Below are positions 13,940 through 64,000 of a stretch of DNA of 64,000 nt, in pieces. The stretch is from contig DATEAH010000009.1 of the NCBI GenBank assembly GCA_035288465.1, positions 11,951-75,950 on the forward strand, in the 5' to 3' direction. The notes below the pieces were generated by a model, which worked only from the letters and a program-made list of their open reading frames with translations, had not been told where the DNA came from and did no database searches. The translations under genes and the position numbers were made by a program. Source of the DNA: Patescibacteria group bacterium (GTDB lineage Bacteria; Patescibacteriota; UBA1384; DATEAH01). Position 1 is the stretch's first letter, and each line of letters starts with the position of its first letter.

Positions 13940-16780
13940 TTAGATCACAAAATTTATTAAACGGTTTGGGACCCAGATCGTTTTTTTTATTTTTTTATCA
14001 GCCAATAACGCCAAAATATTTTTAGATTTTTTCGCCAGTTCAATTATTTCTTTTTCCGAAATTCCATTGACCACTGTTAATTTATCTCGAACTTTGCCAT
14101 TAATTTGCACTACTACCAAAATATCTTTAAGTTTGACTAATTTCTCATTAAACTCAGGCCATTGTTCTTCGAAAATGGGATTTTTATGTCCTAATTTTTG
14201 CCATAACTCTTCAGCCAAATGCGGAAATATCGGTGCCATTAAAATCAGGATTTTTTCACCAGGCTTTTTTTCGTGATTAAAATATTCCATCATTGCCGAA
14301 ATTGCGGTATTTAATCGAAAATTTTCTAAATCTTCTGTCACTTTTTTAATCGCATGATGTAGCAGTGGTGTTTCATTTTGACCAAATTTTGTCCCCCAGA
14401 CTTTTTTCAAAAACCTAAAAATACCCAAGATGCCAGAATCCATCCATTCCGAATCCTCATCAGCCGGACCGATAAACATTTCATAGCCGCGTAAAGCATC
14501 GGTGCCATATTTTGCCACCAATTCATCTGGCGAAACAATATTGCCTTTGGATTTGGACATTTTTGCACCTTGATAATAAATCATGCCAATGTTAAATAAT
14601 TTGCGAAATGGTTCGCCATCTGGATCAAAATTAGTTAATTTGAAATCGTGTAAAAATTTACAAATAAATCTCGCGTATAATAAATGCATCGTGGCGTGTT
14701 CAATACCACCAATATATAAATCAACCGGCAACCAAAACTCGGTTTTTTCCTCATCAAAAGCTTTTTCAGAGTTTTTCGCATCCGCGTATCTTAAATAATA
14801 CCAAGATGAACAAACAAATGTATCTAAAGTATCGGTTTCTCGTACAGCTTCGCCGCCGCATTTTGGACATTTGGTTTCTAAAAATTCTTTATCGTGTTTT
14901 AATGGAGAACCGCCAGTCGGTTTAAATTCAATCTCTTTTGGCAACACCACTGGCAGCTCATTTTCAGGTACAGCCATCTCACCGCACTTATTGCAATATA
15001 TAATAGGTATAGGGGCACCCCAATAGCGCTGCCTCGAAACCAACCAGTCTCGTAAATGATAAGTGGTGGTTTTTTTAGCTTCGCCCTTTTTCGCCAACGA
15101 GCTTGTAATCTTAATTTTTGCTTCATTAGAATCCAAGCCATCAAATTCACCCGAATTTATCAAAATTCCCGTCTCCTCATAAGCCAAATTTTCATGATCA
15201 ATTCGGTCAAACCACAAATCTAATTCTGCACAAGTCATTCTGGCTGGAGTAATTTGCTCGCGAGATAACCATTCAATCTCGTGTTTTTCTTTTTCTTCCG
15301 CAGAAACTGGTACGCGCTCGTCATCAATCAATTCAAAATACAAAGCATTCGTCATCGCCTGCCGATTGACATTTTTGTGAGCGGCATAATATTCGGAAAA
15401 AACCAGACCGCCTAAAAATCGAGTGAATTTAACATTCACAAAACCGGTTTCTTCTTTAATTTCTCTTTTGGCTGCCCCTACTAAATCTTCGCCATCTTTT
15501 GCGCCGCCAACCACAAAAGCGATCCAGGGTTGTTTTTTCCAATTCAAACAGAGGTATTTTTTAGTTTTTGGATTGAAAACTATGGCATGGACTGAATTTC
15601 TTTTGGCAATTTCTTTTCCGTCTTTGGGTGGATTTTTAGAATCAATTCGATGGGGGATAATGACATCTTTTATCGGTAAATCGTATTTCTTAGCAAATTC
15701 AAAATCGCGCTGGTCATGAGCTGGCACACACATAATTGCACCTGTCGCATAATCTCGCAAAACATAATCCGCGACCCAAACCGGGATTTTCTCGCCATTT
15801 ACCGGATTAACCGCGTATGCACCCGTGAAAACGCCAGTTTTTTCACGAGTCGTAGAAGTTCTTGCTATTTCCGAATATTTTCCGGCCTTTTCCACGTATT
15901 CCGCCACCGTCTTTTTTTGTTTAGGAGTAGTAATTTTAGCCACCATTTCGTGTTCTGGGGCCAAAACTAAATAAGTGGCGCCAAATAAAGTGTCGGGTCT
16001 GGTGGTAAACACCTCAATAAAATGTTTCGAATTTAATATTTGAGATTTAGGATTTGTTTCGAATTTCGAATTTCGAATTTCGAATTTAATCGTTACTCCC
16101 TCAGAGCGTCCAATCCAATTTTTTTGCAAGATCTTAGTTCGTGCTGGCCAATCAATTTTTCCCAAATCCGCTAATAACCGATCGGCATATTTAGTAATCT
16201 TAAAAAACCATTGTTTTAAATCTTTTTTGACCACTTTTGAACCGCAACGTTCGCATTCACTTGCCACCACCTGTTCATTAGCCAAAACCGTGTGGCAAGA
16301 TGGACAAAAATTAACCAAGGCTTTTTTGCGATATGCCAAACCCTGTTTATATAATTGCAAAAATAACCACTGCGTCCAGCGATAATAATCAGGGCTTGAG
16401 GTATTAATTTCTCGTTCCCAATCATATAATGAACCAATTTGTGCCAATTGTTCTTTAAATTTAGAAATCGCAGTCTCAGTAAATTCCGCCGGATGAGAAT
16501 TTTTTTTAATCGCCGCATTTTCCGCCGGCAAGCCAAAAGCATCAAAGCCCATCGGATGCAAAATATTTTTACCTTTTAAAATTTGATAGCGCGTCCAAAT
16601 GTCAGACAAAACATAGCCTCGCCAATGCCCCACATGCAAACCTTCCCCAGATGGATAAGGGAACATATCCAAACAATAAAATTTGGGCTTTTTAGAAAAA
16701 TCCACGGCCTGATTTAAATTATTCTTGGCCCAAACTTTTTGCCACCTGGATTCAATTTTTTGAGGATTATAATCTGTCAT
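13940..16780 (-). CDS. leuS: leucine--tRNA ligase carrying an inserted NUDIX domain (aa ~375-535) and a repeat-derived low-complexity insertion (aa ~231-254)
   Basis: HIGH (LHVGH), KMSKS, CP1 editing AHDQRDFEFA; Nudix box GGAKDGEDLVGAAKREIKEETGF between IKDVI and GILINSGEFDGL. Confidence 0.9.
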   Translation of the reverse strand: MTDYNPQKIESRWQKVWAKNNLNQAVDFSKKPKFYCLDMFPYPSGEGLHVGHWRGYVLSDIWTRYQILKGKNILHPMGFDAFGLPAENAAIKKNSHPAEFTETAISKFKEQLAQIGSLYDWEREINTSSPDYYRWTQWLFLQLYKQGLAYRKKALVNFCPSCHTVLANEQVVASECERCGSKVVKKDLKQWFFKITKYADRLLADLGKIDWPARTKILQKNWIGRSEGVTIKFEIRNSKFETNPKSQILNSKHFIEVFTTRPDTLFGATYLVLAPEHEMVAKITTPKQKKTVAEYVEKAGKYSEIARTSTTREKTGVFTGAYAVNPVNGEKIPVWVADYVLRDYATGAIMCVPAHDQRDFEFAKKYDLPIKDVIIPHRIDSKNPPKDGKEIAKRNSVHAIVFNPKTKKYLCLNWKKQPWIAFVVGGAKDGEDLVGAAKREIKEETGFVNVKFTRFLGGLVFSEYYAAHKNVNRQAMTNALYFELIDDERVPVSAEEKEKHEIEWLSREQITPARMTCAELDLWFDRIDHENLAYEETGILINSGEFDGLDSNEAKIKITSSLAKKGEAKKTTTYHLRDWLVSRQRYWGAPIPIIYCNKCGEMAVPENELPVVLPKEIEFKPTGGSPLKHDKEFLETKCPKCGGEAVRETDTLDTFVCSSWYYLRYADAKNSEKAFDEEKTEFWLPVDLYIGGIEHATMHLLYARFICKFLHDFKLTNFDPDGEPFRKLFNIGMIYYQGAKMSKSKGNIVSPDELVAKYGTDALRGYEMFIGPADEDSEWMDSGILGIFRFLKKVWGTKFGQNETPLLHHAIKKVTEDLENFRLNTAISAMMEYFNHEKKPGEKILILMAPIFPHLAEELWQKLGHKNPIFEEQWPEFNEKLVKLKDILVVVQINGKVRDKLTVVNGISEKEIIELAKKSKNILALLADKKIKKTIWVPNRLINFVI
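16019..16090. repeat. intragenic in-frame copy of the palindromic repeat family inside leuS, including (TTCGAAT)x4 7-bp tandem repeat
   Basis: Sequence …GAGATTTAGGATTTGTTTCGAATTTCGAATTTCGAATTTCGAATTT… matches arms of intergenic copies; encodes FEIRNSKFETNPKSQILNSKH. Confidence 0.5.
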
Positions 16781-50251: not shown

Positions 50252-51133
50252 TTGTCCTCAAAAGTCGGCATTTCAAGAGGCTCAAATCGTCAGGACAATA
50301 TTCTGGCGGCCTTAAAGCCTTTGGCTGATGATTTGCGCGAAAAAATCGCTCGCAAAAGACGAGTTGTCATAAAGCCTAATTTAGGTTTTATTAAACATAA
50401 TTTAGCTAACACACAAGCGGAAGCCGTGGAAGCTGTTTTAATGTTTTTACGCCAGTTTTATTCTAAAAAAATCATAATTGCGGAAAGTACTACCGTGGGA
50501 GAAACCGATCGAGCCTATTTTGAATATGATTATGAAGATTTAGCCGACAAATACAATGTGGAACTCCGCGATTTAAATGATGATGATTTTGTCGATTTTA
50601 AAATTTATGATGGCAGATTATCGCCAAAATCAGAAATTGGTTTGGCTAAAACCTTAGCAAAATCAGATTTTATTATTTCTGTATGCCCGATGAAAACACA
50701 CGATTCGGTGATTGTCACTTTGGGAATTAAAAATGTCGCGGTTGGTGCGATTAGGCGAAAAGATCGGTCTAAATTGCATGCCGGTCCCAAAGCGATTAAT
50801 TTATCAATCGCTAAAATTGCCAAAAAAGTTTGGCCAAGCCTATCTGTTTTAGATGGTTTTTGGGGAATGGAGGGGAATGGGCCAGTTGAGGGCGAAAAAG
50901 TTGAATTTAAAACCGCCATAGCAAGTCTTGATGCCATGGCCGCTGATGTGATGGGCACGATTTTAATGGGTTATAATCCGCAAGAAATTGGTTATTTATC
51001 AGAATTAGCAAATCAAAAAATGGGCACTGCTGACCCATTAAAAATGATTATAATGGGGGGAAATTGGCGAACGATGGTGAGAAAATTTAAACCCCACGAA
51101 TCATATCAGCAACAACTCAAGTGGCAAACTTAA
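50252..51133 (+). CDS. DUF362-like protein
   Basis: N-terminal VVIKPNLGF…AESTT pattern reminiscent of DUF362. Confidence 0.5.
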   Translation: MSSKVGISRGSNRQDNILAALKPLADDLREKIARKRRVVIKPNLGFIKHNLANTQAEAVEAVLMFLRQFYSKKIIIAESTTVGETDRAYFEYDYEDLADKYNVELRDLNDDDFVDFKIYDGRLSPKSEIGLAKTLAKSDFIISVCPMKTHDSVIVTLGIKNVAVGAIRRKDRSKLHAGPKAINLSIAKIAKKVWPSLSVLDGFWGMEGNGPVEGEKVEFKTAIASLDAMAADVMGTILMGYNPQEIGYLSELANQKMGTADPLKMIIMGGNWRTMVRKFKPHESYQQQLKWQT

Positions 51134-52137
51134 CACGTTTTATTAAGTTCTAAATAGGCGAGCGTCCAATACGAAGAAATAAAAGCATTTGTAGGACCTG
51201 AAATCACGGCCATCACTAACAGTAAGAGCACAAAAGCACAAATTGCGTAGATGATAGTTGCGGTAGTGCCAAAAATAAAATATAACGCCACCCCAATCCC
51301 GGCAAATAATCCGCCAATTATCAAAAAGCAAATTCCAATTATTATCCCCACAATTAAGCCCAAGATAACAGAAATTAGCCAAATTAGGCTAGTTTCTTTT
51401 AGTTTAACCCGAATTGCTCCAAAAGCTTTACCAAGCGCCTCGGAAGCTGATATTTTATCAATCACGATCATTCGTAGGCCGTATTGTCGAATAATATCCA
51501 AAATAATCATCGCTAAAATCATTGGCAAAATGACAATTACCATCCAAATAATACCAATCGCATAAATATTTACTATAAACGAGAAAATTACCGGTAAACC
51601 TACCAAAAAAATTAAAGCCAGCCCCATTAAAGCTAAAAATAAATCTAAAAATATTACTTGCCAAAAAACATGGTAACCTTTTTTTATGCAACTCGCAAAA
51701 TCACTTTTGTGGTCGTGCTCTATTTCTTTTACGCCCCAAACCAAACCAGCCTGAGCCACGCGCGAAATGACTATAACCGCGATCGTAATTAAAATAATTA
51801 TTGCCAAAATAATAATAATCGTTAACCAATGCGCTTCAAGCCAATTGCTGATCCCTGTTAAGGTATCAGTATTATTTAGGCTAATTTTATTGCCTAAAAC
51901 ACGCTCTTTTATGTTTTGCGCCGTGGTAGTGGGATATGTGGGCGCGGTATTGCCATTGTTTTCCCAGATTTTTTTAAATTCATTATAATCTGCAGAGCTA
52001 AAATTACCGAAATTAAAATTCGAGCCAGATTGAGTCAAAGCCGCCAAAATTCCCAAGATCCACAAAAATTTGTTTTTGGTAGTAATTAGAAATGCTTTTT
52101 TAACAATTCCAAAATAGTTCAAAATAATTCCTTTCAA
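51130..52137 (-). CDS. hypothetical polytopic membrane protein
   Basis: Multiple long hydrophobic helices; no motif recognised. Confidence 0.4.
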   Translation of the reverse strand: MKGIILNYFGIVKKAFLITTKNKFLWILGILAALTQSGSNFNFGNFSSADYNEFKKIWENNGNTAPTYPTTTAQNIKERVLGNKISLNNTDTLTGISNWLEAHWLTIIIILAIIILITIAVIVISRVAQAGLVWGVKEIEHDHKSDFASCIKKGYHVFWQVIFLDLFLALMGLALIFLVGLPVIFSFIVNIYAIGIIWMVIVILPMILAMIILDIIRQYGLRMIVIDKISASEALGKAFGAIRVKLKETSLIWLISVILGLIVGIIIGICFLIIGGLFAGIGVALYFIFGTTATIIYAICAFVLLLLVMAVISGPTNAFISSYWTLAYLELNKTC

Positions 52138-52340
52138 CTATATTATAACAGATTTGTCAAATTATTATAATTTAAAACAATGATTGTTCAAAAAAGTCAA
52201 TTCTTGACAAGATTTGTCATAGGATTATACTAAAAATAGATGTATAACATTGTGTATAACTTTTAATTTTGATAATTTAGTCGGCGAGTTTAAGGTTGCC
52301 CCTCCTTCTTAAACTCGCCCATAGAATTATCAAAGTAAAT

Positions 52341-52465
52341 CAAATCCGAAGCACTAAATCCGAAACAATTTCTAAATCACAAAATCGCAAATCATAAACG
52401 AGTTTAGAATTTGAAAAATTAGAATTTAAAATTTGTTTAGAAATTAGATATTAGAAATTATGATT
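52341..52465. repeat. AT-rich palindromic dispersed repeat, copy 4 (AAATCCGAAGCACTAAATCCGAAACAATTTCTAAATC … AAATTTGTTTAGAAATTAGATATTAGAAATT)
   Basis: Same arm family; immediately upstream of lexA. Confidence 0.5.
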
Positions 52466-52497
52466 TCTCCGTCAAAAGAGGGCAAAGGAGGTTTAAA

Positions 52498-53118
52498 ATG
52501 CCCAAAACCATTACTAAAAATCAAAAGAAAATTTTAGAACTAATTCGTTTGGCCCTCGAAGAGTATGGTGAAGCGCCGACCATCCGAGAATTAATGATGG
52601 AAATTGGCGCCAAATCGCCCAGAACCATTTCTCATCACATTGAGCAATTGGAAAAATCAGGTCTGATCAAAAGAACTGGCGAAGCGAAAAGAAATATTAT
52701 TCTCACCAAAAATGATCCCAAAAATCCTTTTCGAGATTTAGTGCGAGTGCCCTTGGTTGGTTGGACTGCTGGTGGGGAAGCGATTTTTTCTGAAGAAAAT
52801 ATTTTAGATTGGATTTCGATTTCCACGAGATTTTTTAAAGCCCCCTCAAACGATGTTTTTCTGCTCAAAGTACGAGGCAATTCAATGAGCCCAAAAATTG
52901 ATGATGGCGATATTGTGATTGTTAAAAAACAATATACCGCTGAGCCAGGTCAAACCATTGTCGCTCTTTTAGGTGCGGAAACGACCGTCAAAAAGTATTT
53001 ACCCCGCGAAGACCATATTGTTTTACAGCCAATCAATGAAAATTTTGAGCCAATTGTAGTTTTCCCCGATGAACTCAGAATTCAAGGCGTAATCCAAGGC
53101 GTGCTTAAATATTGTTGA
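52498..53118 (+). CDS. lexA: LexA repressor (S24 autopeptidase)
   Basis: N-terminal wHTH, catalytic GNSM Ser and VKK Lys, cleavage-region VGWTAGG; AAAGGAGG RBS. Confidence 0.8.
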   Translation: MPKTITKNQKKILELIRLALEEYGEAPTIRELMMEIGAKSPRTISHHIEQLEKSGLIKRTGEAKRNIILTKNDPKNPFRDLVRVPLVGWTAGGEAIFSEENILDWISISTRFFKAPSNDVFLLKVRGNSMSPKIDDGDIVIVKKQYTAEPGQTIVALLGAETTVKKYLPREDHIVLQPINENFEPIVVFPDELRIQGVIQGVLKYC

Positions 53119-53176
53119 AAACTATGCTTGCAAACTTTATTAAATTATATATTATAATAGGTATAGGGACTAATAA

Positions 53177-53407
53177 TTGATTCGAAGTATAAAGGTATTA
53201 ATGATTGTTATTATTAGGATCATCATTGTCAGTGCTGTAATCTTTGCTGTTTTGGGTTTTTTATTCTCCATTTTTCAGTGGCTACCTCATTTTCCAGGAG
53301 ATACCTTTTATACTCGTGAAAATTTTACCTTTTATTTTCCGGTTATTACCTGCGCGGTTATATCAATTTGCGCCGCCGCCATTTTGTGGTTAACCAAAAA
53401 AATATAA
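53177..53407 (+). CDS. small hypothetical membrane protein
   Basis: 76 aa, two TM helices. Confidence 0.3.
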   Translation: MIRSIKVLMIVIIRIIIVSAVIFAVLGFLFSIFQWLPHFPGDTFYTRENFTFYFPVITCAVISICAAAILWLTKKI

Positions 53408-53420
53408 ATTTGAGGTCATT

Positions 53421-54065
53421 GTGTTTCCATTATCATTTATCCTGCTATTAATCCTCGCTATCCCGTTCCTTTTTTTGGTGTTAAATTATCATATTTCTGA
53501 ATTAGCTTTTGTCAAATTGGGAATTCCCGCCAATCTTATTTTTGCCGTTTTTATCCTTTCATTACTGGGCGGTTTAATTAATATTCCGATTTCAAAACGA
53601 AAAATTACCCAAAAAGATGAATTACCACCCTTAATGTCAATGTTTTTTTATTATCCACCACGAATGAGAGAGCAAATCATTGCCATAAATGTCGGCGGCG
53701 CCATTGTCCCGATTTTAATTTCAATTTATTTATTCAAATTTGCCCCAATTGTGCCAGTCATAATTGCCACCACTATTATTACGATTTTAACCAAATTTTT
53801 AGCCAGGCCAGTTCCAGGAATTGGGATCGCCATGCCCGCGTTTATCCCGCCGATTGTGGCAGCGGTTTTAGCGATGTTGCTCGCCCATAATCAAAATCCG
53901 GCCGCCGTGGCCTATATCTCTGGAGTGATCGGAACCTTGGTGGGTGCAGATTTGCTAAACTTAAATAAAATTAGCAAAATGGGCGGCTATGTCCTTTCCA
54001 TTGGTGGCGCCGGTGTTTTTGATGGAATTTTCTTAATTGGCGTTATCGCCGCATTATTAGCTTAA
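53421..54065 (+). CDS. hypothetical polytopic membrane protein
   Basis: 214 aa, ~6 TM helices, Gly/Ala-rich helices. Confidence 0.4.
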   Translation: MFPLSFILLLILAIPFLFLVLNYHISELAFVKLGIPANLIFAVFILSLLGGLINIPISKRKITQKDELPPLMSMFFYYPPRMREQIIAINVGGAIVPILISIYLFKFAPIVPVIIATTIITILTKFLARPVPGIGIAMPAFIPPIVAAVLAMLLAHNQNPAAVAYISGVIGTLVGADLLNLNKISKMGGYVLSIGGAGVFDGIFLIGVIAALLA

Positions 54066-54090
54066 ATTAATAATTATATAAGGAGGTAGA

Positions 54091-54251
54091 TGAAAAAGAA
54101 ACAAATTGCGGGAGTTTTGGTTGTTTTGTCTGGATTAGCCATCATTTTAGCTTTCATTGGTTCACTAAATTATGATTTATGGTTAGCTTCAACTCAATGG
54201 TTGCTGATTGGTATTGCCTTGGCTGCTTACGGTATTTACGCCAAGTTATAA
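54091..54251 (+). CDS. small hypothetical membrane protein (53 aa, below ORF-track cutoff)
   Basis: AAGGAGG RBS 6 nt before ATG; two TM helices. Confidence 0.3.
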
Positions 54252-54328
54252 AGGCTGAGTTTATAATGTAGAATTTATCTGCTGAATTCCAATTATTTCA
54301 TGAATTAAAAAGAGAGGGAGGGGTTATA

Positions 54329-57300
54329 ATGCCCTTTGAGATTCAACCAAGTTTTATCTTGATAATTTTGGCATTTTTAGGTATTTTTGTTTTTTGGTAT
54401 CCAAAAACAAGAGTTCTAATTATAAAATATTCTAAATTATTTTGGAAAATTATCTTAATTTGTCTAAATAATCTTTCAAAATTGTATAAAATAATAAGTA
54501 TTTATTGGGAAAAATACATTTTTGTCTATTTCCGAACACGAGAAAAAGAGCAAATCCGTGGACTGACAAAAATTGCAATTATTCTCATTATTTTTTCCTT
54601 TATTCTCAATTCATTTGGCCTTGAACCCGACAGTCCCCAAAAAGCAGTCGCCGGCTATCAATGGACGCCTTCGGGGGGAAGTGTTATTACCGGGAGTGAA
54701 TATAATACCCAAGATGCAATTGCCAACACGCCTTCATATCGGGCATTAATGTCTAGCGATGATGTCCGCTGGCTGACAAAATATGATCCTGCCGCAGGTT
54801 TAGATAAACGGACCTATATTGATGGGGTTCAGCTTCAGGGCGCTAACAAAATGTTTATCACTTATGAAGGTTACGCCAGTGATGCCGCCGGAAATTATAC
54901 GGTTGAGATTTATGATAACACTGATTTTGTTTGGCGGACTTTAAATTGGCGCGGCACTGCTTTTACTAATACCAGTGACTCAACTTATACTTTTGAAATC
55001 TATAATGGTTTTTGGCAATCAGGCGGAAATCCGGTTAATACGCCCTTGTCTCGTTTTGTGACCGGAGATGCCAATAAGAGAGTCTCTATTCGAGTTTATT
55101 CGGCCGTAACTGGCGGCAGAATTCATTATTGGGACCGGCTGCAAGTTGAAGTTGGCATTGATCCGGTTTATTACACAAACTCTTTAACTAAATTAAATGG
55201 CTGGACAGGGGCAATTACCAATGATTATACCTGGACTAATTATGCCGATGACCAAAGAATGGTTGCCGCAAATCAAGCCGGAACGCCTTTGGATTTTTAT
55301 CTTTCATACACCGGAATCCAAACATACCCTAGCGCTAATACTATCTTTGTTGATTTTCAAGGCTCAGTTTCAAACGCGGCCCTAACTTATCAGCTTCAAA
55401 TTTATAATTTTACCGGTTTAAGCTGGGAAAATTTAAACACCACCCTGCTTGCCAATACTACTGAAACAAGTTATTATTTTGCTAAAAATAATGTCACACT
55501 TGCAGATTATATTTCTGCTAATGAAGCCAGAATTAGGATTTATACCGCTACTGGCAATACCTACACCTTAAGCGCAGACCGGGTTTATATCACTGTCGGC
55601 TCAACTAATACTGACCAAGGTTTGTGTCAGGTTTCTTTTGGCACAGAAGCTGGCGGGACAAATTGTTCAAATACTCGAACGATTGATACTTCAAGCGCCG
55701 AGAGTACTTGGCAGCAGACCACAGCGACTACCGCCGCCGCTGGTTATTACCCGGGAGATTACGCTGGAACCTGGGGAACTAATTATTCGGCGTCTGCTAA
55801 TCTTTCGGTGCCAATTACCATTCCAGACAGTACCGCGGTGACTGGGATTAAATACACGGCTAGATTTCGTTCAAATGTGACCACCAACACGATGATGCCA
55901 AGCCTAAAAGATATGTCTGGGATTAATACCTCTGTGGTCGGGACAGGCTATGCCGCACCCGGGGGTTGGGTTGATGTTTCAGCTTCAAATGCATTAACGA
56001 CTTATTCCACTTTAGAACCAGCCGCTTATACTCTTTCAACTTCATCAGAAGATTTTATTAATACTGAAAGCGATCTTGCGAATATACGCATGCGAACCTC
56101 AGCCAGCACTGCTACCGGAAGCGTAACGAGGGACTGGGATTTTGCTTTAATTGCGATTCGATGGCTTGCTGATGACACTGTCGCGGCCGATAATCCCCAA
56201 TATGTAGCCACATCTGGGTCTCTCCAAACCGGGACAGCGGTTGCAGTTGGCGCGACAAATACCGCATCATATTCCGGCACATTAAATTCTGAAAATTATT
56301 ACTGGCAAAACCAAAATTCAGCTTCTGGTTTGGATGTTCGGGTCAACATCGATGGTGTTAAACTCAACAATGCCAACAAAATGATTATTACTTATGAAGG
56401 CATGGTTTCAAACGCGGCTTTAGTATATTATGTGCAAATCTATGATAATACCAACTCTTTATGGCGAACCTTAAATGACCGAGGAGCAGCCCTCACCAGT
56501 ATTACGGAATCAAGCTATTATTTCTCGATCTTTAATGGTTTCTGGGGAGCAGACACTCCCTTATCAAACTTTATCACCAGTGATGCCAACAAACGGGTTC
56601 AACTAAGAATCTATTCTGAATATAAGGGTACTGCCTATACTCAATCTATAGACCGACTTCAACTTGAAGTAGCCACTGACCCAATTTACTGGGCTAAAGA
56701 CCAGACAGTTTTAGCGGGTGGAGATGGGGCAGTGACTAGTACCGGAACTAATGCCAGAGCCTTTGATATTACTAAAGATTCCTCTTATACGTATGCAGTA
56801 GGATATTGCGGAAATGATTGGTGCATAGAAAAAAGAAGAATTTCTGACGGAAGTTTAGTCAATGATTTTGGCAATAATGGTTTGGTTATTGGTACAATAT
56901 CGAGCAATAATGCGACTGCGCTTGCGATTGACGCAACTTATATGTATATTGTCGGGAATACTGGTGGATTTCCAAGTAATTTTTATTACGAAAAAAGAAA
57001 CCTTATTGATGGTAATCTAGATTTAGGTTTTGGGACTAACGGTGTTATTACCGGTGATCCCGATAGTAATATGGCTACAAGTATTGTCATTGATAATAGT
57101 AATATGTATGTGATTGGATACGACGATTCAAATAATTTACGCATTGAAAAAAGATCATTAACTAATGGCACATTAGATGCAGGTTTTGGTACCAATGGTG
57201 TGATCACTGGCGATCCATCAAGCAATATCGCTGAAGATATAGCCATAGATAATGAGTTTATGTATGTGGTAGGAGCTGATGACACTCCGGACTGGCGAAT

Positions 57301-60300
57301 CGAGAAACGTTATTTATCTGACGGCGACCCGGATGTAACTTTTGGCATTAATGGGGTGAAAACTAGTGACGCCGCCAGTAAATATGCTTTTGCAATTGCG
57401 ATTGACGCGACTCAAATGTATGTGGTGGGTCAAGATGAAACGCCGGATATTCGTATTGAAAATAGATTGCTTTCTGATGGCAGTTTGGATTTGACTTTTG
57501 GTTTAAATGGGGTGAAAACTAGCGACGCCGCAAGTGTTGTCGCCCAAGATATTGCCATTGACGACCAATATATGTATTTGACAGGGTCCAACACTACCCC
57601 GGACTGGCGAACTGAAAAACGCCTCTTATCTGATGGCAGTTATGATTTAGGTTTTGGTACTAACGGTGTTGCGACTAGTGCCTCAGCGAGTGACTACGCT
57701 TTTGGTATCGTGATTGATGCAAATGATATGTACATCGCCGGTAGTGAATACGCAGCCGATTGGCAGTGGCGGGTTGAAAAAAGAAGTTTATCTGACAGCT
57801 CTTTAAATACAATTTATGGAAGTCTTAATAATAATTACAAATTTACTCATCCGGCGGCTGGCAGCGCCATCTCTACTGGCGGTTCAGATGACCAAAGGAT
57901 GACTTTTGCCAATCCTTCAGGTGCCTCTTTTGATTATTATCTCACCTTTGGCAATGTGACTAAATACACTGGTGCGAATGCGATTCTGGTCTATTATGAA
58001 GGCAACACCTCTACTGCCAGTTTAACCTATAAAATTAAAATCTATAATTTTACCACTCCAGGCTGGGAAGATTTATCTAGCACTGTTTTTGCTAATACTT
58101 CAGATACTGCATATCAATTTGCCAAAGCTCCCATTGCCAATCTTGATGATTACATCTCTGATGGCAATATCAGGATTGGTTTTTACACCAATACCACTCA
58201 AGCTGGTACTTTTTCTGTTGATTACGTTTATGCCACCCTGGGTAGCGTGATTTCCGATGCTGGCAATTCTGAATTAACTTTTGGCGCCACCAATGGCGGC
58301 TCTTCATCATTAAATAGCCAATCCATAGATACAAGTTCAACCTCGCCTTCTACCTGGCAGATAAATACTTCAAATACCGGTGCAAATCCTTATGCTTCAG
58401 ATTGGGCAGGACAATATAGTGTCAATCAGCAAGCCACCGCTTTAATTGATTTTTCAACTACTTTAGGGAATAATACCCCCACCACTGGTATCAGATATGC
58501 TTTTCGGATGTTAACTGCTTCCACCAGTTTGACTTGGCAAGGGTATCAACAAGATTATTCGGGATTAATCGGCACTGTTGGCGGTTGGTTAGCAGCTGGT
58601 ACAACCAATAGTTCCGATTCAACATATACATATACCGAAGGCTGGAATGGCACCACTTTTAGAAATAATGAAAATTATCTCAATACTTTCGAAAATACCT
58701 TGAATTTAAAATTAAAACCGACTGCCAGTACCCGAGGTACCCAGTTAACCACCAATTGGGATTTTGCTTTTGCCTCTTTGCGTTGGTATGAAAATTCAGC
58801 CAACGCCCATTATAATTTTCAACTCACCCCAACCAATAGCAGTATTACTTTAGGTTCAGATATCGATCCTCAAGATGCGGTGCAAAATGTTGGTTCTTGG
58901 CGGGCCGCCTTAGCTTCAGATGATAATAGATGGGTAATTAAAAATGACCCTACCGCCGGACTTGATGCTAGAATCAGCCTTGATAATATTGACTTAAACT
59001 CCGGCAACAAAATGATGATTACTTATGAAGGCTCAGTCTCATATGCCTCAGCTTATTATTTTGTCCAAATTTATGACAATGTAAGTTCGGTTTGGCGAAC
59101 TTTAAATGACCGAGAAGTAGCTTTAAATAATACCACCGAAACTAGTCCATATTATTTTTCAATTTTCAACGGTTACTGGAATGATGGCGGGGGTTCTGTT
59201 AACGCGCCTTTGAGTAATTTTATCACCAACGATGCCAATAAACGGGTTCAGATTAGATTTTATTCGACGACGAACATTGTTGGATTTACCTTAGCAATAG
59301 ACCGTGTGCAGGCCGAAGTCGCGACTGATCCGGTTTATTGGCCAAGTAATTTTAATTTATCAAGCGGCAGTGATGGGATTATGGATGGCGTTGTCGCTAG
59401 TGATAGCATTCGCGCTATGGCGAAGGATACCAGCTATATGTATGTGGTAGGTAATGATAGCACTCCTGACTGGCGAGTTGAAAAAAGAAGTTTAATAAGC
59501 GGCAGTTTGGATACTGGTTTTGGCACCAATGGCGTAGCCACCGGCGCTTCGGCAAGCAACTGGGCTTATGCCATTGCTATTGATGCTAACTTTATGTACG
59601 TTGCAGGGGGTGATAGTACTCCTGATTTGCGCATTGAAAAACGCAGATTGTCTGATGGCAGTTTAGATGTAGGTTTTGGCACCAATGGCGTGGTTACTGG
59701 AGCATCGTCTAGTAATGGAATTTCGACCATTGCCATTGATTCTACCTATATGTATGTGGCTGGGTGGGATAGCACTCCTAATTGGCGCATTGAAAAACGC
59801 AGCTTGTCTAATGGCAGTTTAGATTTAGGTTTTGGCAATAATGGCGTCATTACCAGCGATTCGGATGGCGATTATGCTCAAGCTATTGCCATTGACACTA
59901 ATTTTATGTATGTGGCGGGAATAACCGGCGCTCCTAATTGGCGCATTGAAAAACGCAGCTTATCCGACGGCAGTTTAGATTTAGGTTTTGGCACCAATGG
60001 CGTAATCGCTTGCGACCCAGCAAGCAATGATCTGGGGGGGATTGCTGTAGCTGCCGGTTTTATGTATATAGCAGGTTTTGATGACACTTTTAATTGGCGC
60101 ATTGAAAAACGCAACTTATCCGACGGTACTCCGGATAATGGTTTTGGCACCAACGGTGTCGTCACCGGCGACCCGGCGAGCAACAGGGCTTATGCCATTG
60201 CCATTGATGCTACCTATATGTATGTAGCGGGACGCGATGAAAATACTAAATGGCGCATTGAAAAACGCAACTTATCCGACGGTACTCCGGATAATGTTTT

Positions 60301-63300
60301 TGGCACCAACGGTGTCGTCACCGGCGATGTAACCAGTTTTGTTGCTTTTGCCATTACTATTGATGCCAGCAAAATATATACGGCAGGTTCTGATTGGGTG
60401 GGTAACTGGCACATTGACAAAAGAGCTCTTTCTGACGGTGCCTTAGATACATCTTCTGGCTCAGGTTTTGGCAATGTTGATTATAATACTTACAAAGCCA
60501 CTCATCCAATTGCCACGACAGCAATTTCTTCGGGCGGTTCGGATGATCAATACCTAGCTGTTCAGAATATCTCTGGTCAATCGTTTGACTTTTATCTGAC
60601 TTTCGGCAATGTTGCCACCTATACCGGTGCTAATGCCCTTTTTGTTTATTATGAAGGTAAAACCTCAGCGGCAGGTTTAACCTACAAAATTAAAATCTAT
60701 AATTTTACTACCCCCGGCTGGGAGGATTTATCAGCCACGGTTTTTGCTAACACCACTGATACAGCCTACCAGTTTGCCAAGGCTCCGATTGCAAATCTCG
60801 ATGACTACATTTCGGGCGGGAATATTCGGATTGGTTTTTACACACCTTCCACCACAGCTGGGAGCTTTAGTATTGATTATCTTTATCTGATGCCGGGTTC
60901 AGTGATTGACAATGCCGCTAATTCGGAAATATCTTTTGGCACAGAAGCGGGCGGTACCGCCGCCACCGGGACGCAAAGCTTGGATACAAGCTTAGGAGCA
61001 GGCGCCGAAAATTATTGGGGAGTCACCACCGCGACAACTGCCACTAATCCTTATTTTGGCGACTGGTCAGGAACCTACAGCACAAATGATAACGGCGCCG
61101 CTAATATCTCCTTTCCGGTGACAATGCCCGCCAACGCTAAAGTGACTAACACCAGGTCTGTGGCAAGGTATTTGTCTAATTCAGCCGCAAACACGATTGA
61201 ATACGCTTTTAAAGATTATGGCGGAGCTTTGGGAACAACCGGCGGTTGGGTTGATCCGGGCGCTGTCAGCAATAACTCTTCCACTTATTCTATAAATTAC
61301 TATCGGCAAACCACAAATCCCGAAGATTTTATCAATACCTCAACTAACAAAATGAACATGAAAATCAGAACCACCGCCAGCACTGATGCTAATTTGGTCA
61401 CTTACCGCTGGGATTTTGCTTTCGTCACTTTTGCTTGGACAACCGAAGAAGATCACCCTTCGGGTTCTCATCAATTCACCGGTACAGGCGGTTCTTTAGA
61501 AGTTGGGATAGGCATGGCGTTGTCATCAACTAATTATGGCAGCTGGCGCGGGACTTTAGCGTCTGATAATGGTTACTGGCAAAACCAAAATTCAGCTTCG
61601 GGTTTAGATGTGCGAGTCAGCATCGATGGTGTTAAACTCAACAATGCCAACAAAATGATTATCACTTATGAGGGCATGGTTTCCAACGCGGCCTTAACTT
61701 ATTATGTCCAAATATATGATAATACCGCTGGTTTCTGGCGGACCCTAAATGATCGAGGCGCCCTATTAACCAGCACCACCGAATCAACTTATTATTTCTC
61801 CATCTTCGACGGTTTTTGGGGTTCAAGTACTCCCTTATCAAACTTTATCACCAGTGATGCCAACAAACGAGTTCAATTAAGAATCTATTCCGAATATACT
61901 GGCACGGCCTACACCCAATCTGTTGACCGATTCCAACTTGAGGTTGCCACGGATCCTGTTTATTGGGCTAAAGACCAGACAGTCTTGGCGGGTGGAGATG
62001 GGGTAATTACTAGTGCTGCTGATGGCTATGAAGCCACTGATGTTGCCAAAGATGATACCTATATGTATGTGTTTGGAAACAATGAATCTTTTGATTGGCG
62101 GGTTGAAAAAAGAAAGTTATCCGATGGCACCCTAGATGTTGGTTTTGGTAATAATGGTGTTGTTTCAAGCCCGGGAGCAAGTAATTATGCTGAAGCCATT
62201 ACTATTGACTCGACTTATATGTATATCGTAGGTAGTAATTGGACAACTGAGGACAAAATACGAGTTGAAAAACGTCGTTTGTCTGATGGTAGCTTAGATA
62301 TGAGCTTCGGCACAAATGGTGTAATTTTAGGTGATTCAAGTAGTTCTTATGCTTACGCCATTGATGTTGACTCAACTTATATGTACATAGTTGGAACTGA
62401 TGACACTCCTGACTGGCGAATTGAGAAACGTTATTTATCTGATGGCAGCTTAGATTTAAGTTTTGGGAATAATGGTATTATCACTTGCGATCCTTTAAGT
62501 TATGCAGCATTAGCAATTATTATTGATAATAATTTTATGTATATTACCGGGAGAGATGAAACGGCAGATTGGCGCATTGAAAAAAGGGCTCTTTCAAATG
62601 GTGATTTAGATTTAGGTTTTGGCGATCAAGGTGTAATCACCGGTGACCCGGCAGGTTTCGCGGCTAATAATCTTGCCATTAATGACACGTATATGTATGT
62701 CGTTGGAAATATCCCAACCCCTGATTGGCGCATTGAAAAAAGAGCTTTACTTGATGGTAGTTTGGACTTAAGTTTTGGCAATAATGGTGTTATTTCAGGT
62801 GATCCATCCAGTAATACTCCATATGATATTACTATTGATTCAAATTATATGTATGTTACCGGAGATCAATGGGCGGCTGGATATGACTGGCGAATTGAAA
62901 AACGAGCCCTCTCAGACGGTGCTCCAGATTTAGGTTTTGGCACCAACGGGGTGATCACCGGTGATGTAGCCACATATCGGTCTTATGGCATTGTTAAAGA
63001 CTCAAATGATATGTATGTGGTTGGGGGTGACGGTTCTGATTGGCGAATTGAAAAACGAGCCCTCTCAAATGGTGCCCTAAATACTATCTTTGGCAGTCTT
63101 AATAATAATTACAAATTTACCCACCCGGCGGCTGGCAGCGCTATTTCCACTGGCGGTTCAGATGATCAGAAGTTGGCTTATGTCAATCCTTCAGGTGCCT
63201 CTTTTGATTATTATTTAACTTTTGGCAATGTCGCTACTTATACTGGCGCAAATGCAATTTTGGTCTATTACGAGGGTATGACTTCCACCGCTAGCCTTAC

Positions 63301-64000
63301 CTACAAACTTAAGATATATAATTTTACTAATTTGAACTGGGAAGATTTATCCTCAACTGCTCTTGTCAATACGGCAGATACTGCCTATCAGTTTGCCAAA
63401 GCGCCCATTGCAAACCTCGATGATTATATCCAAGGCGGCAATATCCGGATTGGTTTTTATACCTCTACCACCCAAGCCGGCACTTTTTCTGTCGATTATA
63501 TTTATGCCACCCTGGGCAGTGTGATTTCTGATGCGGGGAATGCCCAAATCTCTTTTGGCTCAACTGACGGTTCAAGCGCTTTAAACACCCAAAACCTCGA
63601 TGCTTCTTTAGCCAGTCCTGCTGTTTATGGCGTAAATACTGCCACCACTGCCGCCAGTTTTTACGCGAATGATTATGCACCAGGTCTATATAATGTTGCT
63701 CAAAATGGGGCCGCGAATATCAATTTTAACATCACACCCACTAATAATACTTTTGTGACCGGTATTCGATATGCGGCGCGTTATCGTTCTAATTCAACTT
63801 TACTGACAGTCCAGCCTAATGTTTTTGATTACAGCGGTTTACTTGGGGTATCAGGCGGCTGGTTAGCGGTCGGCACCACCAATGCCCTTACTACCTATAC
63901 TTATTCTGAAGGTTTTCATAATGCCACGAATAATAACGCTTGGGGTTTTAATAACGATCTTTCTAATATGCGTTTGAGAACTACCGCCAGTACTTTAGGC
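54329..64000 (+). CDS. giant N-terminally membrane-anchored surface repeat protein (>3,224 aa, 3' end beyond window)
   Basis: GGGAGGGG RBS then ATG 54329; hand translation stop-free to window end (9,672 nt = 3,224 codons); two N-terminal hydrophobic helices then repeated A/B/C modules and delta-60-like ~45-aa repeats. Confidence 0.75.
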   Translation, partial: MPFEIQPSFILIILAFLGIFVFWYPKTRVLIIKYSKLFWKIILICLNNLSKLYKIISIYWEKYIFVYFRTREKEQIRGLTKIAIILIIFSFILNSFGLEPDSPQKAVAGYQWTPSGGSVITGSEYNTQDAIANTPSYRALMSSDDVRWLTKYDPAAGLDKRTYIDGVQLQGANKMFITYEGYASDAAGNYTVEIYDNTDFVWRTLNWRGTAFTNTSDSTYTFEIYNGFWQSGGNPVNTPLSRFVTGDANKRVSIRVYSAVTGGRIHYWDRLQVEVGIDPVYYTNSLTKLNGWTGAITNDYTWTNYADDQRMVAANQAGTPLDFYLSYTGIQTYPSANTIFVDFQGSVSNAALTYQLQIYNFTGLSWENLNTTLLANTTETSYYFAKNNVTLADYISANEARIRIYTATGNTYTLSADRVYITVGSTNTDQGLCQVSFGTEAGGTNCSNTRTIDTSSAESTWQQTTATTAAAGYYPGDYAGTWGTNYSASANLSVPITIPDSTAVTGIKYTARFRSNVTTNTMMPSLKDMSGINTSVVGTGYAAPGGWVDVSASNALTTYSTLEPAAYTLSTSSEDFINTESDLANIRMRTSASTATGSVTRDWDFALIAIRWLADDTVAADNPQYVATSGSLQTGTAVAVGATNTASYSGTLNSENYYWQNQNSASGLDVRVNIDGVKLNNANKMIITYEGMVSNAALVYYVQIYDNTNSLWRTLNDRGAALTSITESSYYFSIFNGFWGADTPLSNFITSDANKRVQLRIYSEYKGTAYTQSIDRLQLEVATDPIYWAKDQTVLAGGDGAVTSTGTNARAFDITKDSSYTYAVGYCGNDWCIEKRRISDGSLVNDFGNNGLVIGTISSNNATALAIDATYMYIVGNTGGFPSNFYYEKRNLIDGNLDLGFGTNGVITGDPDSNMATSIVIDNSNMYVIGYDDSNNLRIEKRSLTNGTLDAGFGTNGVITGDPSSNIAEDIAIDNEFMYVVGADDTPDWRIEKRYLSDGDPDVTFGINGVKTSDAASKYAFAIAIDATQMYVVGQDETPDIRIENRLLSDGSLDLTFGLNGVKTSDAASVVAQDIAIDDQYMYLTGSNTTPDWRTEKRLLSDGSYDLGFGTNGVATSASASDYAFGIVIDANDMYIAGSEYAADWQWRVEKRSLSDSSLNTIYGSLNNNYKFTHPAAGSAISTGGSDDQRMTFANPSGASFDYYLTFGNVTKYTGANAILVYYEGNTSTASLTYKIKIYNFTTPGWEDLSSTVFANTSDTAYQFAKAPIANLDDYISDGNIRIGFYTNTTQAGTFSVDYVYATLGSVISDAGNSELTFGATNGGSSSLNSQSIDTSSTSPSTWQINTSNTGANPYASDWAGQYSVNQQATALIDFSTTLGNNTPTTGIRYAFRMLTASTSLTWQGYQQDYSGLIGTVGGWLAAGTTNSSDSTYTYTEGWNGTTFRNNENYLNTFENTLNLKLKPTASTRGTQLTTNWDFAFASLRWYENSANAHYNFQLTPTNSSITLGSDIDPQDAVQNVGSWRAALASDDNRWVIKNDPTAGLDARISLDNIDLNSGNKMMITYEGSVSYASAYYFVQIYDNVSSVWRTLNDREVALNNTTETSPYYFSIFNGYWNDGGGSVNAPLSNFITNDANKRVQIRFYSTTNIVGFTLAIDRVQAEVATDPVYWPSNFNLSSGSDGIMDGVVASDSIRAMAKDTSYMYVVGNDSTPDWRVEKRSLISGSLDTGFGTNGVATGASASNWAYAIAIDANFMYVAGGDSTPDLRIEKRRLSDGSLDVGFGTNGVVTGASSSNGISTIAIDSTYMYVAGWDSTPNWRIEKRSLSNGSLDLGFGNNGVITSDSDGDYAQAIAIDTNFMYVAGITGAPNWRIEKRSLSDGSLDLGFGTNGVIACDPASNDLGGIAVAAGFMYIAGFDDTFNWRIEKRNLSDGTPDNGFGTNGVVTGDPASNRAYAIAIDATYMYVAGRDENTKWRIEKRNLSDGTPDNVFGTNGVVTGDVTSFVAFAITIDASKIYTAGSDWVGNWHIDKRALSDGALDTSSGSGFGNVDYNTYKATHPIATTAISSGGSDDQYLAVQNISGQSFDFYLTFGNVATYTGANALFVYYEGKTSAAGLTYKIKIYNFTTPGWEDLSATVFANTTDTAYQFAKAPIANLDDYISGGNIRIGFYTPSTTAGSFSIDYLYLMPGSVIDNAANSEISFGTEAGGTAATGTQSLDTSLGAGAENYWGVTTATTATNPYFGDWSGTYSTNDNGAANISFPVTMPANAKVTNTRSVARYLSNSAANTIEYAFKDYGGALGTTGGWVDPGAVSNNSSTYSINYYRQTTNPEDFINTSTNKMNMKIRTTASTDANLVTYRWDFAFVTFAWTTEEDHPSGSHQFTGTGGSLEVGIGMALSSTNYGSWRGTLASDNGYWQNQNSASGLDVRVSIDGVKLNNANKMIITYEGMVSNAALTYYVQIYDNTAGFWRTLNDRGALLTSTTESTYYFSIFDGFWGSSTPLSNFITSDANKRVQLRIYSEYTGTAYTQSVDRFQLEVATDPVYWAKDQTVLAGGDGVITSAADGYEATDVAKDDTYMYVFGNNESFDWRVEKRKLSDGTLDVGFGNNGVVSSPGASNYAEAITIDSTYMYIVGSNWTTEDKIRVEKRRLSDGSLDMSFGTNGVILGDSSSSYAYAIDVDSTYMYIVGTDDTPDWRIEKRYLSDGSLDLSFGNNGIITCDPLSYAALAIIIDNNFMYITGRDETADWRIEKRALSNGDLDLGFGDQGVITGDPAGFAANNLAINDTYMYVVGNIPTPDWRIEKRALLDGSLDLSFGNNGVISGDPSSNTPYDITIDSNYMYVTGDQWAAGYDWRIEKRALSDGAPDLGFGTNGVITGDVATYRSYGIVKDSNDMYVVGGDGSDWRIEKRALSNGALNTIFGSLNNNYKFTHPAAGSAISTGGSDDQKLAYVNPSGASFDYYLTFGNVATYTGANAILVYYEGMTSTASLTYKLKIYNFTNLNWEDLSSTALVNTADTAYQFAKAPIANLDDYIQGGNIRIGFYTSTTQAGTFSVDYIYATLGSVISDAGNAQISFGSTDGSSALNTQNLDASLASPAVYGVNTATTAASFYANDYAPGLYNVAQNGAANINFNITPTNNTFVTGIRYAARYRSNSTLLTVQPNVFDYSGLLGVSGGWLAVGTTNALTTYTYSEGFHNATNNNAWGFNNDLSNMRLRTTASTLG
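56300..64000 (+). repeat. tandem ~2.64-kb intragenic supermodules (x3+ within the giant gene), ~88-90% DNA identity between copies
   Basis: e.g. ACTGGCAAAACCAAAATTCAGCTTC…GATGGTGTTAAACTCAACAATGCCAACAAAATGATTAT at 56.30k and 61.57k; CTTAATAATAATTACAAATTTAC…GGCGGTTCAGATGA at 57.82k and 63.10k. Confidence 0.7.

Follow-up and report, generated by a model that had tools for sequence, protein, structure and literature searches.

At the 3' end of the DNA stretch analysed here (64,000 nt from a Patescibacteria group bacterium, hereafter the window), a giant open reading frame contains long repeats with a period of about 2.64 kb. Do these repeats record a recent and still unstable amplification, an error of assembly, or an old architecture? 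The original prediction favoured recent intragenic tandem duplication, with proneness to homologous recombination, copy-number or antigenic variation, and an assembled copy number that might be wrong. Our analysis points instead to ancient binding modules between which short stretches were later copied, an ordinary history rather than a recent or unstable duplication. We put the probability of this account as a whole (ancient modules, an old duplication, later conversion in two domains, and a probable surface adhesin) at about 0.75.

Extent and modular architecture of the giant gene

The reading frame starts at an ATG preceded by a ribosome-binding site (GGAGGGG) and runs unbroken over at least 3307 codons to the last base of the window. 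Gene calls of 3826 aa are present on contigs of ENA ERZ27254873, ENA ERZ27254844 and JGI 3300025313, which have 0-1 mismatches relative to the window, and we infer that the complete gene spans 54329-65809 and encodes 3826 aa, so that the window covers its 5' 84%. Our reading of the sequence reached 251 nt past the window end and took in the protein up to its last 519 residues, at the C-terminus. Homology searches returned the 3826-aa protein only as a truncated copy (P0135). As to the organism, NusA is 100% identical to a MAG protein filed at NCBI under the name Patescibacteria group bacterium. Module boundaries were set at the protein level by self-comparison of overlapping 200-aa chunks, and the resulting features are as follows.

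54329..64000, + strand: giant gene, cut by the window end; open reading frame from ATG 54329 to base 64000
54329..54649, + strand: N-terminal region, strongly hydrophobic in two segments at about aa 6-24 and 76-99 (Kyte-Doolittle)
54650..56191, + strand: module M0 (module 1), D1-D2-D3, three CBM-like beta-sandwich domains without a propeller
56192..58807, + strand: supermodule A (module 2), from module alignment, domain map and seven EKR-anchored units of 52-54 aa
Domains of A, + strand: D1 56192-56698; 7-blade propeller 56684-57784; D2 57824-58246; D3 58247-58807
58808..61465, + strand: supermodule B (module 3), from module alignment, domain map, EKR-anchored units and TRF
Domains of B, + strand: D1 58814-59347; 7-blade propeller 59333-60424; D2 60476-60901; D3 60902-61459
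61466..64000, + strand: supermodule C (module 4), from module alignment, domain map and EKR-anchored units
Domains of C, + strand: D1 61466-61972; 7-blade propeller 61958-63058; D2 63098-63520; D3 from 63521 to beyond the window

Behind the hydrophobic segments at its N-terminus, the protein thus carries four paralogous D1-D2-D3 modules of ancient origin (m1 to m4), each with three CBM-like beta-sandwich domains. In modules 2, 3 and 4, a complete 7-bladed beta-propeller separates D1 from D2, which gives rise to the 2.64-kb period. As predicted, the first block has no delta-60-like array: D1 of M0 ends at aa 284 and D2 begins at aa 288. The predicted supermodule period of 2,635 bp is likewise borne out, with boundaries at 56192, 58808 and 61466, and the starts originally noted belong to this repeat, displaced by about +100 nt. 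Supermodules are 2.62-2.66 kb long, with 2616 nt from the start of A to that of B and 2658 nt from B to C (mean 2637). Just past the window, D3 of supermodule C ends in ...GWDFAFMSIRW about 19 aa beyond the edge (locus L014), and the sequence following it there is non-module sequence, with no fifth module.

The D1, D2 and D3 domains have the jelly-roll beta-sandwich fold seen in beta-sandwich carbohydrate-binding modules. In the propeller of B, TRF detects a 156-bp period at 59426-60387, and the predicted structure (pLDDT 89.5, pTM 0.90) has 7 blades of 4 strands and matches 7-bladed WD40 propellers in Foldseek with a TM of ~0.6. Trees of the individual repeat units have little resolution past blade 1. 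The hydrophobic segments at the N-terminus (Kyte-Doolittle 19-residue means of up to 2.0 and 1.9) are a probable membrane anchor or signal anchor.

Age of the repeats and support from independent assemblies

The copies do lie head to tail at a constant period within one open reading frame, as tandem duplication would leave them, and the repeat signal is far above chance. Where the original prediction had proposed a dot plot, self-blastn returned the off-diagonal matches it anticipated, at offsets of 2619-2655 and exactly 5274. The best 200-bp window is 86.5% identical at an offset of 5274 and 81.5% at 2655; across 1565 in-frame control offsets the corresponding value has its median at 37.5% and its 99th percentile at 63%. 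The original prediction also singled out blocks two periods apart, and A and C, separated by 5274 bp, are indeed the closest pair, while neighbouring supermodules share only matches of 75-78% over at most 308 bp. The level of identity, in contrast, had been overestimated. Rather than 88-90% over hundreds of bp, the two best stretches measure 457 bp at 84.0% and 464 bp at 81.0%; identity of at least 88% is seen only on the scale of ~100-bp windows (up to 93%, in 56298-56397), and no 200-bp window attains it.

In the complete codon alignment, A and C are identical at 65.9% of nucleotides, A and B at 59.1%, and B and C at 59.9%. Recently duplicated units should combine high identity along their whole length with low synonymous divergence, yet here whole-unit identity is 59-66% and dS between supermodules is 1.5-2.5 overall, falling only to ~0.9-1.0 in the best A-C tracts. 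Apart from A-C in D1 and D2, codons at conserved residues are identical only at chance level (42-47%). The comparison of dN/dS between modules, suggested as a check for diversifying or antigenic variation, gave values of 0.09-0.36 in every domain and pair, which indicates purifying selection on all domains and speaks against such variation.

The age of the arrangement can be gauged from the three closest relatives, P0001 (JGI 3300045900), P0002 (Logan ERR12350088) and P0003 (KKF32_02660, GCA_018817315.1), which are hypothetical giant proteins of Patescibacteria MAGs and are 55-64% identical to the window protein in the best local alignment. In each, one hydrophobic N-terminal segment precedes D1-D2-D3 modules, exactly four in number and ordered as in the window protein, and the D3 domains correspond module by module. 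In neighbour-joining trees of these short domains (16-22 sequences), D3 groups by position across genomes for m1, m2 and m3 (bootstrap 97, 75 and 99) and weakly for m4 (28), and D1 of m1 and m3 also groups by position (99 and 92). The D3 domains of the window protein are 58-70% identical to the same-position D3 of relatives, compared with 32-50% to their own paralogs. The four-module layout is therefore older than the split from P0001-P0003, and the duplications that created it are old. In these relatives, unlike in the window protein, D1 and D2 are not separated by a propeller (0 blade hits), and the C-terminal regions differ as well.

Could the repeat nonetheless be recent, or an artefact? 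Recent duplication with active unequal recombination would fit the regular ~2.64-kb period, the 93% A-C identity in one 100-bp window, and the fact that public contigs break inside the gene, L002 at window position 60365 and L009 at 55651. We nevertheless consider it very improbable: synonymous sites are saturated, dN/dS is well below 1, and the relatives share the same four modules, so that a module's closest counterpart along much of the unit (D3 in all modules, D1 in m1 and m3) is positional rather than one of its own copies. An assembly error can be suspected in a repetitive gene from a short-read metagenome, where collapse, expansion or chimerism could occur; some contigs do end within the gene, and L009 has a 902-nt non-matching end. 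Five independent assemblies from different pipelines (ERZ27254873, ERZ27254867, ERZ27254844, ERZ27254809 and JGI 3300025313) nevertheless reproduce the window sequence with at most one mismatch across as much as 20 kb, and three of them call the 3826-aa gene. Because the longest exact repeat between supermodules is only 42 nt, this agreement makes misassembly of the repeat unlikely; with repeats that diverge by 16-40%, exact matches of at most 46 nt and an intact frame, we give next to no credence to an artefactual repeat, and the doubt that had been cast on the copy number can be set aside. These assemblies are near-clonal and thus bear on assembly artefacts rather than on variation between diverged strains; among them, as among the three closest relatives with their four modules each, copy number does not vary. 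The suggestion that the gene is prone to recombination fares in two ways: no copy-number difference appears among the near-clonal assemblies, but D1 and D2 bear traces of gene conversion. The gene model and copy number can be trusted, and the repeat is neither recent, unstable nor misassembled.

Probable exchange between modules 2 and 4

In the propeller tree no two paralogs are closer than modules 2 and 4 (bootstrap 97), and the D3 tree weakly agrees (49). Their closeness probably arose in two layers. The first layer would be an old two-module duplication. In the second, short non-reciprocal exchanges would have made D1 and D2 alike again once the relatives had split off, although long ago, as a dS of ~0.9-1.0 suggests. 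The sliding identity profile and the blastn HSPs place the raised identity in discrete tracts within divergent flanks.

56288..56740, + strand: putative D1 conversion tract in A; partner 61562..62014 in C; 84.0% over 457 bp
57804..58267, + strand: putative D2 conversion tract in A; partner 63078..63541 in C; 81.0% over 464 bp

Within the D1 tract, identity at third codon positions rises to as much as 82%, compared with a baseline of 35-50%. Where A and C have the same residue, they also use the same codon in 67% of cases in D1 (44% expected, z 5.1) and in 61% in D2 (46% expected, z 3.3), and synonymous-site identity in these two domains thus exceeds what codon usage predicts. The D2 tract is a mosaic, since its centre in A (57926-58231) is nearest to B (60581-60886, 77.9%). 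In the trees, D1 of m2 and m4 clusters within its own genome for the window protein (bootstrap 91), P0001 (100) and P0003 (69), and in D2 the window's m2 and m4 cluster together (98) and then with m3 (98), in contrast to the orthologous grouping of the flanking D3.

Relatives have tracts between the same two modules. In P0001, a 984-bp tract is 98.2% identical between m2 and m4, while elsewhere only short matches of ~83% are found, indicating a very recent event. In P0003, 75% of codons at conserved residues are identical between the D1 domains of m2 and m4, compared with 36-57% for cross-species orthologs.

Could the old two-module duplication (m1m2 to m1m2m3m4), together with stronger constraint on D1 and D2, account for the 76-81% nucleotide identity with no conversion at all? 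Such a history would accommodate several observations: the sister relation of the A and C propellers, the adjacent clades of m2 and m4 in the D3 tree, the fact that no domain is more conserved than D1 and D2 in any comparison, and the marginal p value (0.07) that a scan statistic gives to the A-C run richest in identical codons. It would not accommodate the amino-acid identities, however: m2 and m4 of the window protein are 79% identical in D1 and 86% in D2, compared with at most 72% and 63% for positional orthologs, while D3 behaves in the opposite way. The excess of identical codons is synonymous, specific to A-C and above that in ortholog comparisons, and the tract in P0001, which involves the same modules, cannot be ancient. 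We therefore regard a history free of conversion as improbable, and old gene conversion between A and C in D1 and D2 best explains the trees and codon statistics. Under conversion, the low nucleotide identity of the A and C propellers (60%) would mean that the tracts in D1 and D2 are separate events, or that the conversion is older than much of the propeller divergence. Stronger purifying selection on D1 and D2 also adds to their higher identity.

The outcome would be domain-specific concerted evolution between non-adjacent modules. Homogenisation of surface-protein repeats by gene conversion within one gene is known from staphylococcal and streptococcal repeat adhesins and from Candida ALS. 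Unlike in those systems, the window gene has old and long repeats (modules of 0.5-0.9 kb), homogenisation is confined to sub-domains of modules that are not neighbours, and copy-number variation is not seen among the near-clonal assemblies.

Relatives, known folds and probable function

Beyond the three closest relatives, the family extends to distant members (P0134, P0133, P0140 and P0150) that share the same D1-propeller-D2-D3 supermodule, with the 7-blade propeller at the same D1/D2 junction (14 blades in P0133 m1). They differ from the window protein in having two modules rather than four and are only ~35-44% identical to it. The embedded propellers of P0133, P0134 and the window protein form one clade (bootstrap 97), whereas those of P0140 and P0150, which have a further propeller inside D3, group among other propellers. 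In Omnitrophota, P0004 and P0005 (annotated as 'C25 family cysteine peptidase') are of secreted type, and their N-terminus holds two D1-D2-D3 modules (47-49% identity); unlike the window protein, they are fused to a gingipain-like peptidase (PF01364) and lack a propeller, and their modules cluster within their own lineage. Homology search found no related loci among genome contigs and only five among metagenome contigs, four of them distant (45-47% identity) and the fifth, L009, a fragment of the same gene. Synteny between the neighbourhoods of the window gene and of P0001-P0003 was not found.

The array resembles delta-60 repeats (TIGR02608) and DUF5122 (PF17164): a unit of ~52 aa with the motif W-R-I-E-K-R ... 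F-G-x-x-G-V occurs seven times, and its predicted fold is a propeller of seven such tandem units. TIGR02608 scores 54.8 bits against the window protein, below the cut-off of 76.5, and PF17164 does not match the array, although the relatives P0032 and P0062 pass PF17164 (35.6 and 39.8 bits; cut-off 27). A search of delta-60/DUF5122 type gave 925 proteins at E <= 1e-5, with lengths of 255-652 aa among the 120 listed; unlike in delta-60/DUF5122 proteins, the propeller of the window protein is embedded inside a larger module. A literature search on 'delta-60 repeat' returned nothing. Pfam and NCBIfam gave nothing above cut-off for the whole protein, M0 or the array, and a PDB sequence search gave no match. 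The D domains compare with type B beta-sandwich CBMs (CBM4, CBM16, CBM22 and CBM29) at 7-13% sequence identity and match no Pfam family. The anatomy described here, three CBM-like jelly rolls with an optional embedded 7-bladed propeller, defines the module of a giant-protein family without Pfam annotation. This family is found in Patescibacteria and also in Omnitrophota, where the modules are fused to a C25 peptidase.

From fold and hydrophobicity, to which surface location and ligand binding are both owed here, the giant protein is probably a membrane-anchored, extracellular, multivalent adhesin that binds glycans or surfaces on behalf of an episymbiotic cell. Members of this family are candidates for the means by which ultra-small episymbiotic bacteria attach to their hosts. 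More tentatively, and with odds that we rate as rather low, selection may keep D1-D2 of modules 2 and 4 alike, as two identical binding heads for bivalent recognition of one host-surface ligand, in a new host-attachment family built from triple CBM-like modules and a plug-in 7-bladed propeller. Such a role would fit conversion of m2-m4 D1-D2 that recurs independently from lineage to lineage (old in the window genome, patchy in P0003, and with the 984-bp tract at 98.2% in P0001), while D3 and the other modules diverge freely.

Elsewhere in the window, a high-GC island lies at 10.8-13.8 kb. Rfam found no rRNA there, and that identity was rejected; the island looks like coding sequence for a collagen-like repeat.

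Repeat period and module anatomy

The giant gene starts at an ATG preceded by GGAGGGG. Since it is called as a 3826-residue product on public contigs with 0-1 mismatches to the window, its end is expected near 65809. Matches within the gene were located by self-blastn of 54.0-64.0 kb, and module boundaries were taken from chunked self-blastp and a MAFFT alignment:

54329-64000 (+): giant gene, open through base 64000
aa 108-621: M0 (module 1)
aa 622-1493: supermodule A (module 2)
aa 1494-2379: supermodule B (module 3)
aa 2380 onward: supermodule C (module 4)
56288-56740 vs 61562-62014: strongest A-C match, 84.0% over 457 bp
57804-58267 vs 63078-63541: second A-C match, 81.0% over 464 bp

The off-diagonal lines expected by the original prediction were found, at offsets of 2619-2655 and exactly 5274. 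The best match at the one-period offset is 77.9% over 308 bp. At offset 5274, the highest identities in ungapped sliding windows are 93% for 100 bp (56298-56397), 86.5% for 200 bp and 83.6% for 450 bp. Across 1565 in-frame control offsets, the best 200-bp identity was 37.5% at the median and 63% at the 99th percentile, so both the repeat and its period are genuine and lie far beyond chance. The proposed identity of 88-90% over hundreds of bp was overstated: the two A-C matches are the best, and no 200-bp ungapped window at offset 5274 reaches 88%.

Every module consists of three domains, D1 (about 170 aa), D2 (about 140 aa, distantly related to D1) and D3 (about 190 aa). In A, B and C, an array of exactly seven 52-54-aa units, each anchored on an E-K-R motif, lies between D1 and D2; as had been noticed, the first block, M0, has no array there. 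The giant protein matched no Pfam family, and the delta-60 repeat model TIGR02608 scored 54.8 bits, under its cut-off of 76.5. The structural model of array B (pLDDT 89.5, pTM 0.90) has seven four-stranded blades and matches 7-bladed WD40 propellers (TM about 0.6). Based upon this model, the array is predicted to be a complete propeller domain with a structurally fixed blade number, rather than a free-running tandem repeat.

Blades of propeller B (59426-60387) resemble one another more closely than do the blades of A and C, both in mean nucleotide identity (67.7% vs about 60%) and in third-position identity (57% vs 43%). An exact repeat of 46 nt occurs in propeller B at an offset of 156 bp, and its array alone was detected by TRF. 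This suggests more recent homogenisation or amplification within propeller B.

Age of the duplications and soundness of the assembly

In codon alignments of whole supermodules, nucleotide identity is 65.9% for A-C, 59.1% for A-B and 59.9% for B-C, and dS is saturated (1.5-2.5). The best A-C domains are D1 (76% identity, dS 0.98) and D2 (81%, dS 0.91). As a test independent of protein constraint, we counted identical codons at columns sharing an amino acid, for which the codon usage of the giant gene predicts 42-47%. Nearly all module pairs and domains lie near this expectation, with small excesses at most (z no higher than 3.2); A-C D1 (67%, z 5.1) and A-C D2 (61%, z 3.3) stand out clearly from the rest. 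These values argue against recent duplication. The dN/dS ratio is 0.09-0.36 throughout module domains and pairs, and thus gives no sign of the diversifying selection for which a comparison between modules had been proposed.

Short-read misassembly had also been raised. Contigs from five assemblies (ENA ERZ27254873, with a contig of 116.6 kb; ERZ27254867; ERZ27254844; ERZ27254809; JGI 3300025313) match the giant gene with 0-1 mismatches; three matching contigs carry the 3826-aa call, and on a fourth the call runs into the contig end after 3797 aa. The longest exact matches, 42 nt between supermodules and 46 nt between blades, are too short to mislead an assembler using k = 141. The matching contigs rule out an assembly artefact; being almost clonal, they speak to artefact and not to copy number among diverged strains. 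One matching locus runs 251 nt beyond the window, where D3 of module C ends in ...GWDFAFMSIRW and no further D1 was found. Thus, the gene has four modules, as in its relatives, a count read through these 251 nt and covering the protein up to its C-terminal 519 residues. Overall, the repeat was partly confirmed as described, and the view of it as a recent duplication, prone to recombination and possibly misassembled, largely lacks support.

Another JGI contig, Ga0209002_10017359, agrees with window 51249-55651 at every position (100%), but the 902 nt at its start have no match to the window. The junction (about 51249) falls inside a DUF7544 gene (51130-52137, -) and reflects either a rearrangement at strain level or chimerism of the contig.

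Probable gene conversion and the history of the propeller

The best homologs of the window protein, P0001, P0002 and P0003, one of which is named Patescibacteria by NCBI, are 55-64% identical in their best local alignments. In all three, the D1-D2-D3 modules number exactly four, and no propeller was found. In neighbour-joining trees (100 bootstraps), D3 forms clades by module position across genomes (m1 97, m2 75, m3 99, m4 28). D1 of m1 and m3 also groups by position (99 and 92), whereas D1 of m2 and m4 groups within its own genome (window 91, P0001 100, P0003 69). In the D2 tree, m2 and m4 pair in P0001 (100) and in the window (98), where m3 then joins them at 98. The identity matrices agree: window D3 is 58-70% identical to same-position D3 of relatives vs 32-50% to its own paralogs, while m2 and m4 of the window share 79% in D1 and 86% in D2, against cross-genome maxima of 72% and 63%.

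Traces are also visible in the DNA. In the P0001 gene, modules 2 and 4 share a tract that is 98.2% identical, with little similarity beyond it, and this is a very recent gene conversion of the same module pair:

L010:7789-8772 vs L010:10852-11832: 984-bp tract spanning D1-D2 and the start of D3

In P0003, 75% of codons are identical between m2 and m4 D1 at conserved residues, compared with 36-57% for cross-species orthologs. Within window D2, the closest partner switches from A-C (57818-57935) to A-B (57935-58110) and back to A-C, a mosaic of the kind that several short conversion events would leave. Together, trees, identity matrices and DNA tracts indicate that the four-module layout is ancestral, and that D1 and D2 of modules 2 and 4 have probably been homogenised repeatedly since by gene conversion; in the window genome, the same apparently holds for D2 of module 3. 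The propeller tree likewise places modules 2 and 4 nearest to each other (97), as does, with weak support, the D3 tree (49), and an older duplication that copied two modules as a unit would fit this pattern.

Three small 23S_rRNA_IVP (PF05635) genes lie around the P0001 gene.

Within this family, the propeller acts like a plug-in domain. The array alone matched 925 proteins (E <= 1e-5); the 120 listed are 255-652 aa long, and the few source names among the matches listed are Planctomycetota, Nitrospiria, Spirochaetes, Kofleriaceae and Parcubacteria. Distant family members sharing the D1-propeller-D2-D3 unit were recovered when supermodule A served as query in an exhaustive HMMER search. There are two such units in P0134; in P0133, m1 has 14 blades (a double array) and m2 has none; and P0140 and P0150 carry, besides the D1/D2 propeller, a further one inserted into D3 behind the first strand of that domain. 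One clade (97), with stand-alone propellers outside, unites the embedded propellers of the window, P0133 and P0134, and those of P0140 and P0150 are placed elsewhere. The shared unit and clade show that the propeller-bearing supermodule is an old architecture. The absence of propellers from P0001-P0003 may reflect loss in those proteins; alternatively, their presence in the window lineage may be a regain by recombination. Among the window's three propellers, A and C pair at 97, and the grouping of all three is weak (57).

Putative role and genomic surroundings

The giant protein contains twelve CBM-like beta-sandwich domains and three propellers, all under purifying selection, and its N-terminal 100 residues hold two strongly hydrophobic segments. 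The Omnitrophota proteins P0004 and P0005 carry these modules as a fusion with a gingipain-type C25 peptidase. Patescibacteria live as episymbionts. From these features we infer a putative membrane-anchored, extracellular, multivalent surface- or glycan-binding protein. The gene is ordinary and ancient, a modular gene for a probable surface protein in which concerted evolution is patchy. Describing it is of modest value, chiefly for adding a protein family that lacked annotation and a probable case of domain-specific conversion between modules that do not adjoin.

Its neighbours are ordinary chromosomal genes (NusA, ClpB, RelA/SpoT, HisRS, LexA, DUF1614); a NusA of identical sequence (100%) occurs in an NCBI MAG that carries the name "Patescibacteria group bacterium". 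Other features of the window are:

53201-53407 (+): conserved 68-aa ORF upstream of the giant gene, DUF2905 by precomputed Pfam annotation of matching contigs
54090-54251 (+): conserved 53-aa ORF just upstream of the giant gene, without family, in 43 blocks of the contig collection
10800-13800: island of 54-66% GC in a 33-42% GC genome, with overlapping ORFs on both strands
13022-13702 (-): ORF matching the Pfam collagen triple-helix repeat (E 4.6e-6, 26.7 bits, cut-off 27.2)
13940-16780 (-): leucyl-tRNA synthetase

Rfam finds no rRNA in the GC island, which probably consists of one or several genes with collagen-like Gly-X-Y repeats. In the leucyl-tRNA synthetase, the editing domain is immediately followed by a NUDIX hydrolase domain (aa 393-513, E 6.5e-14), an unusual fusion or insertion.
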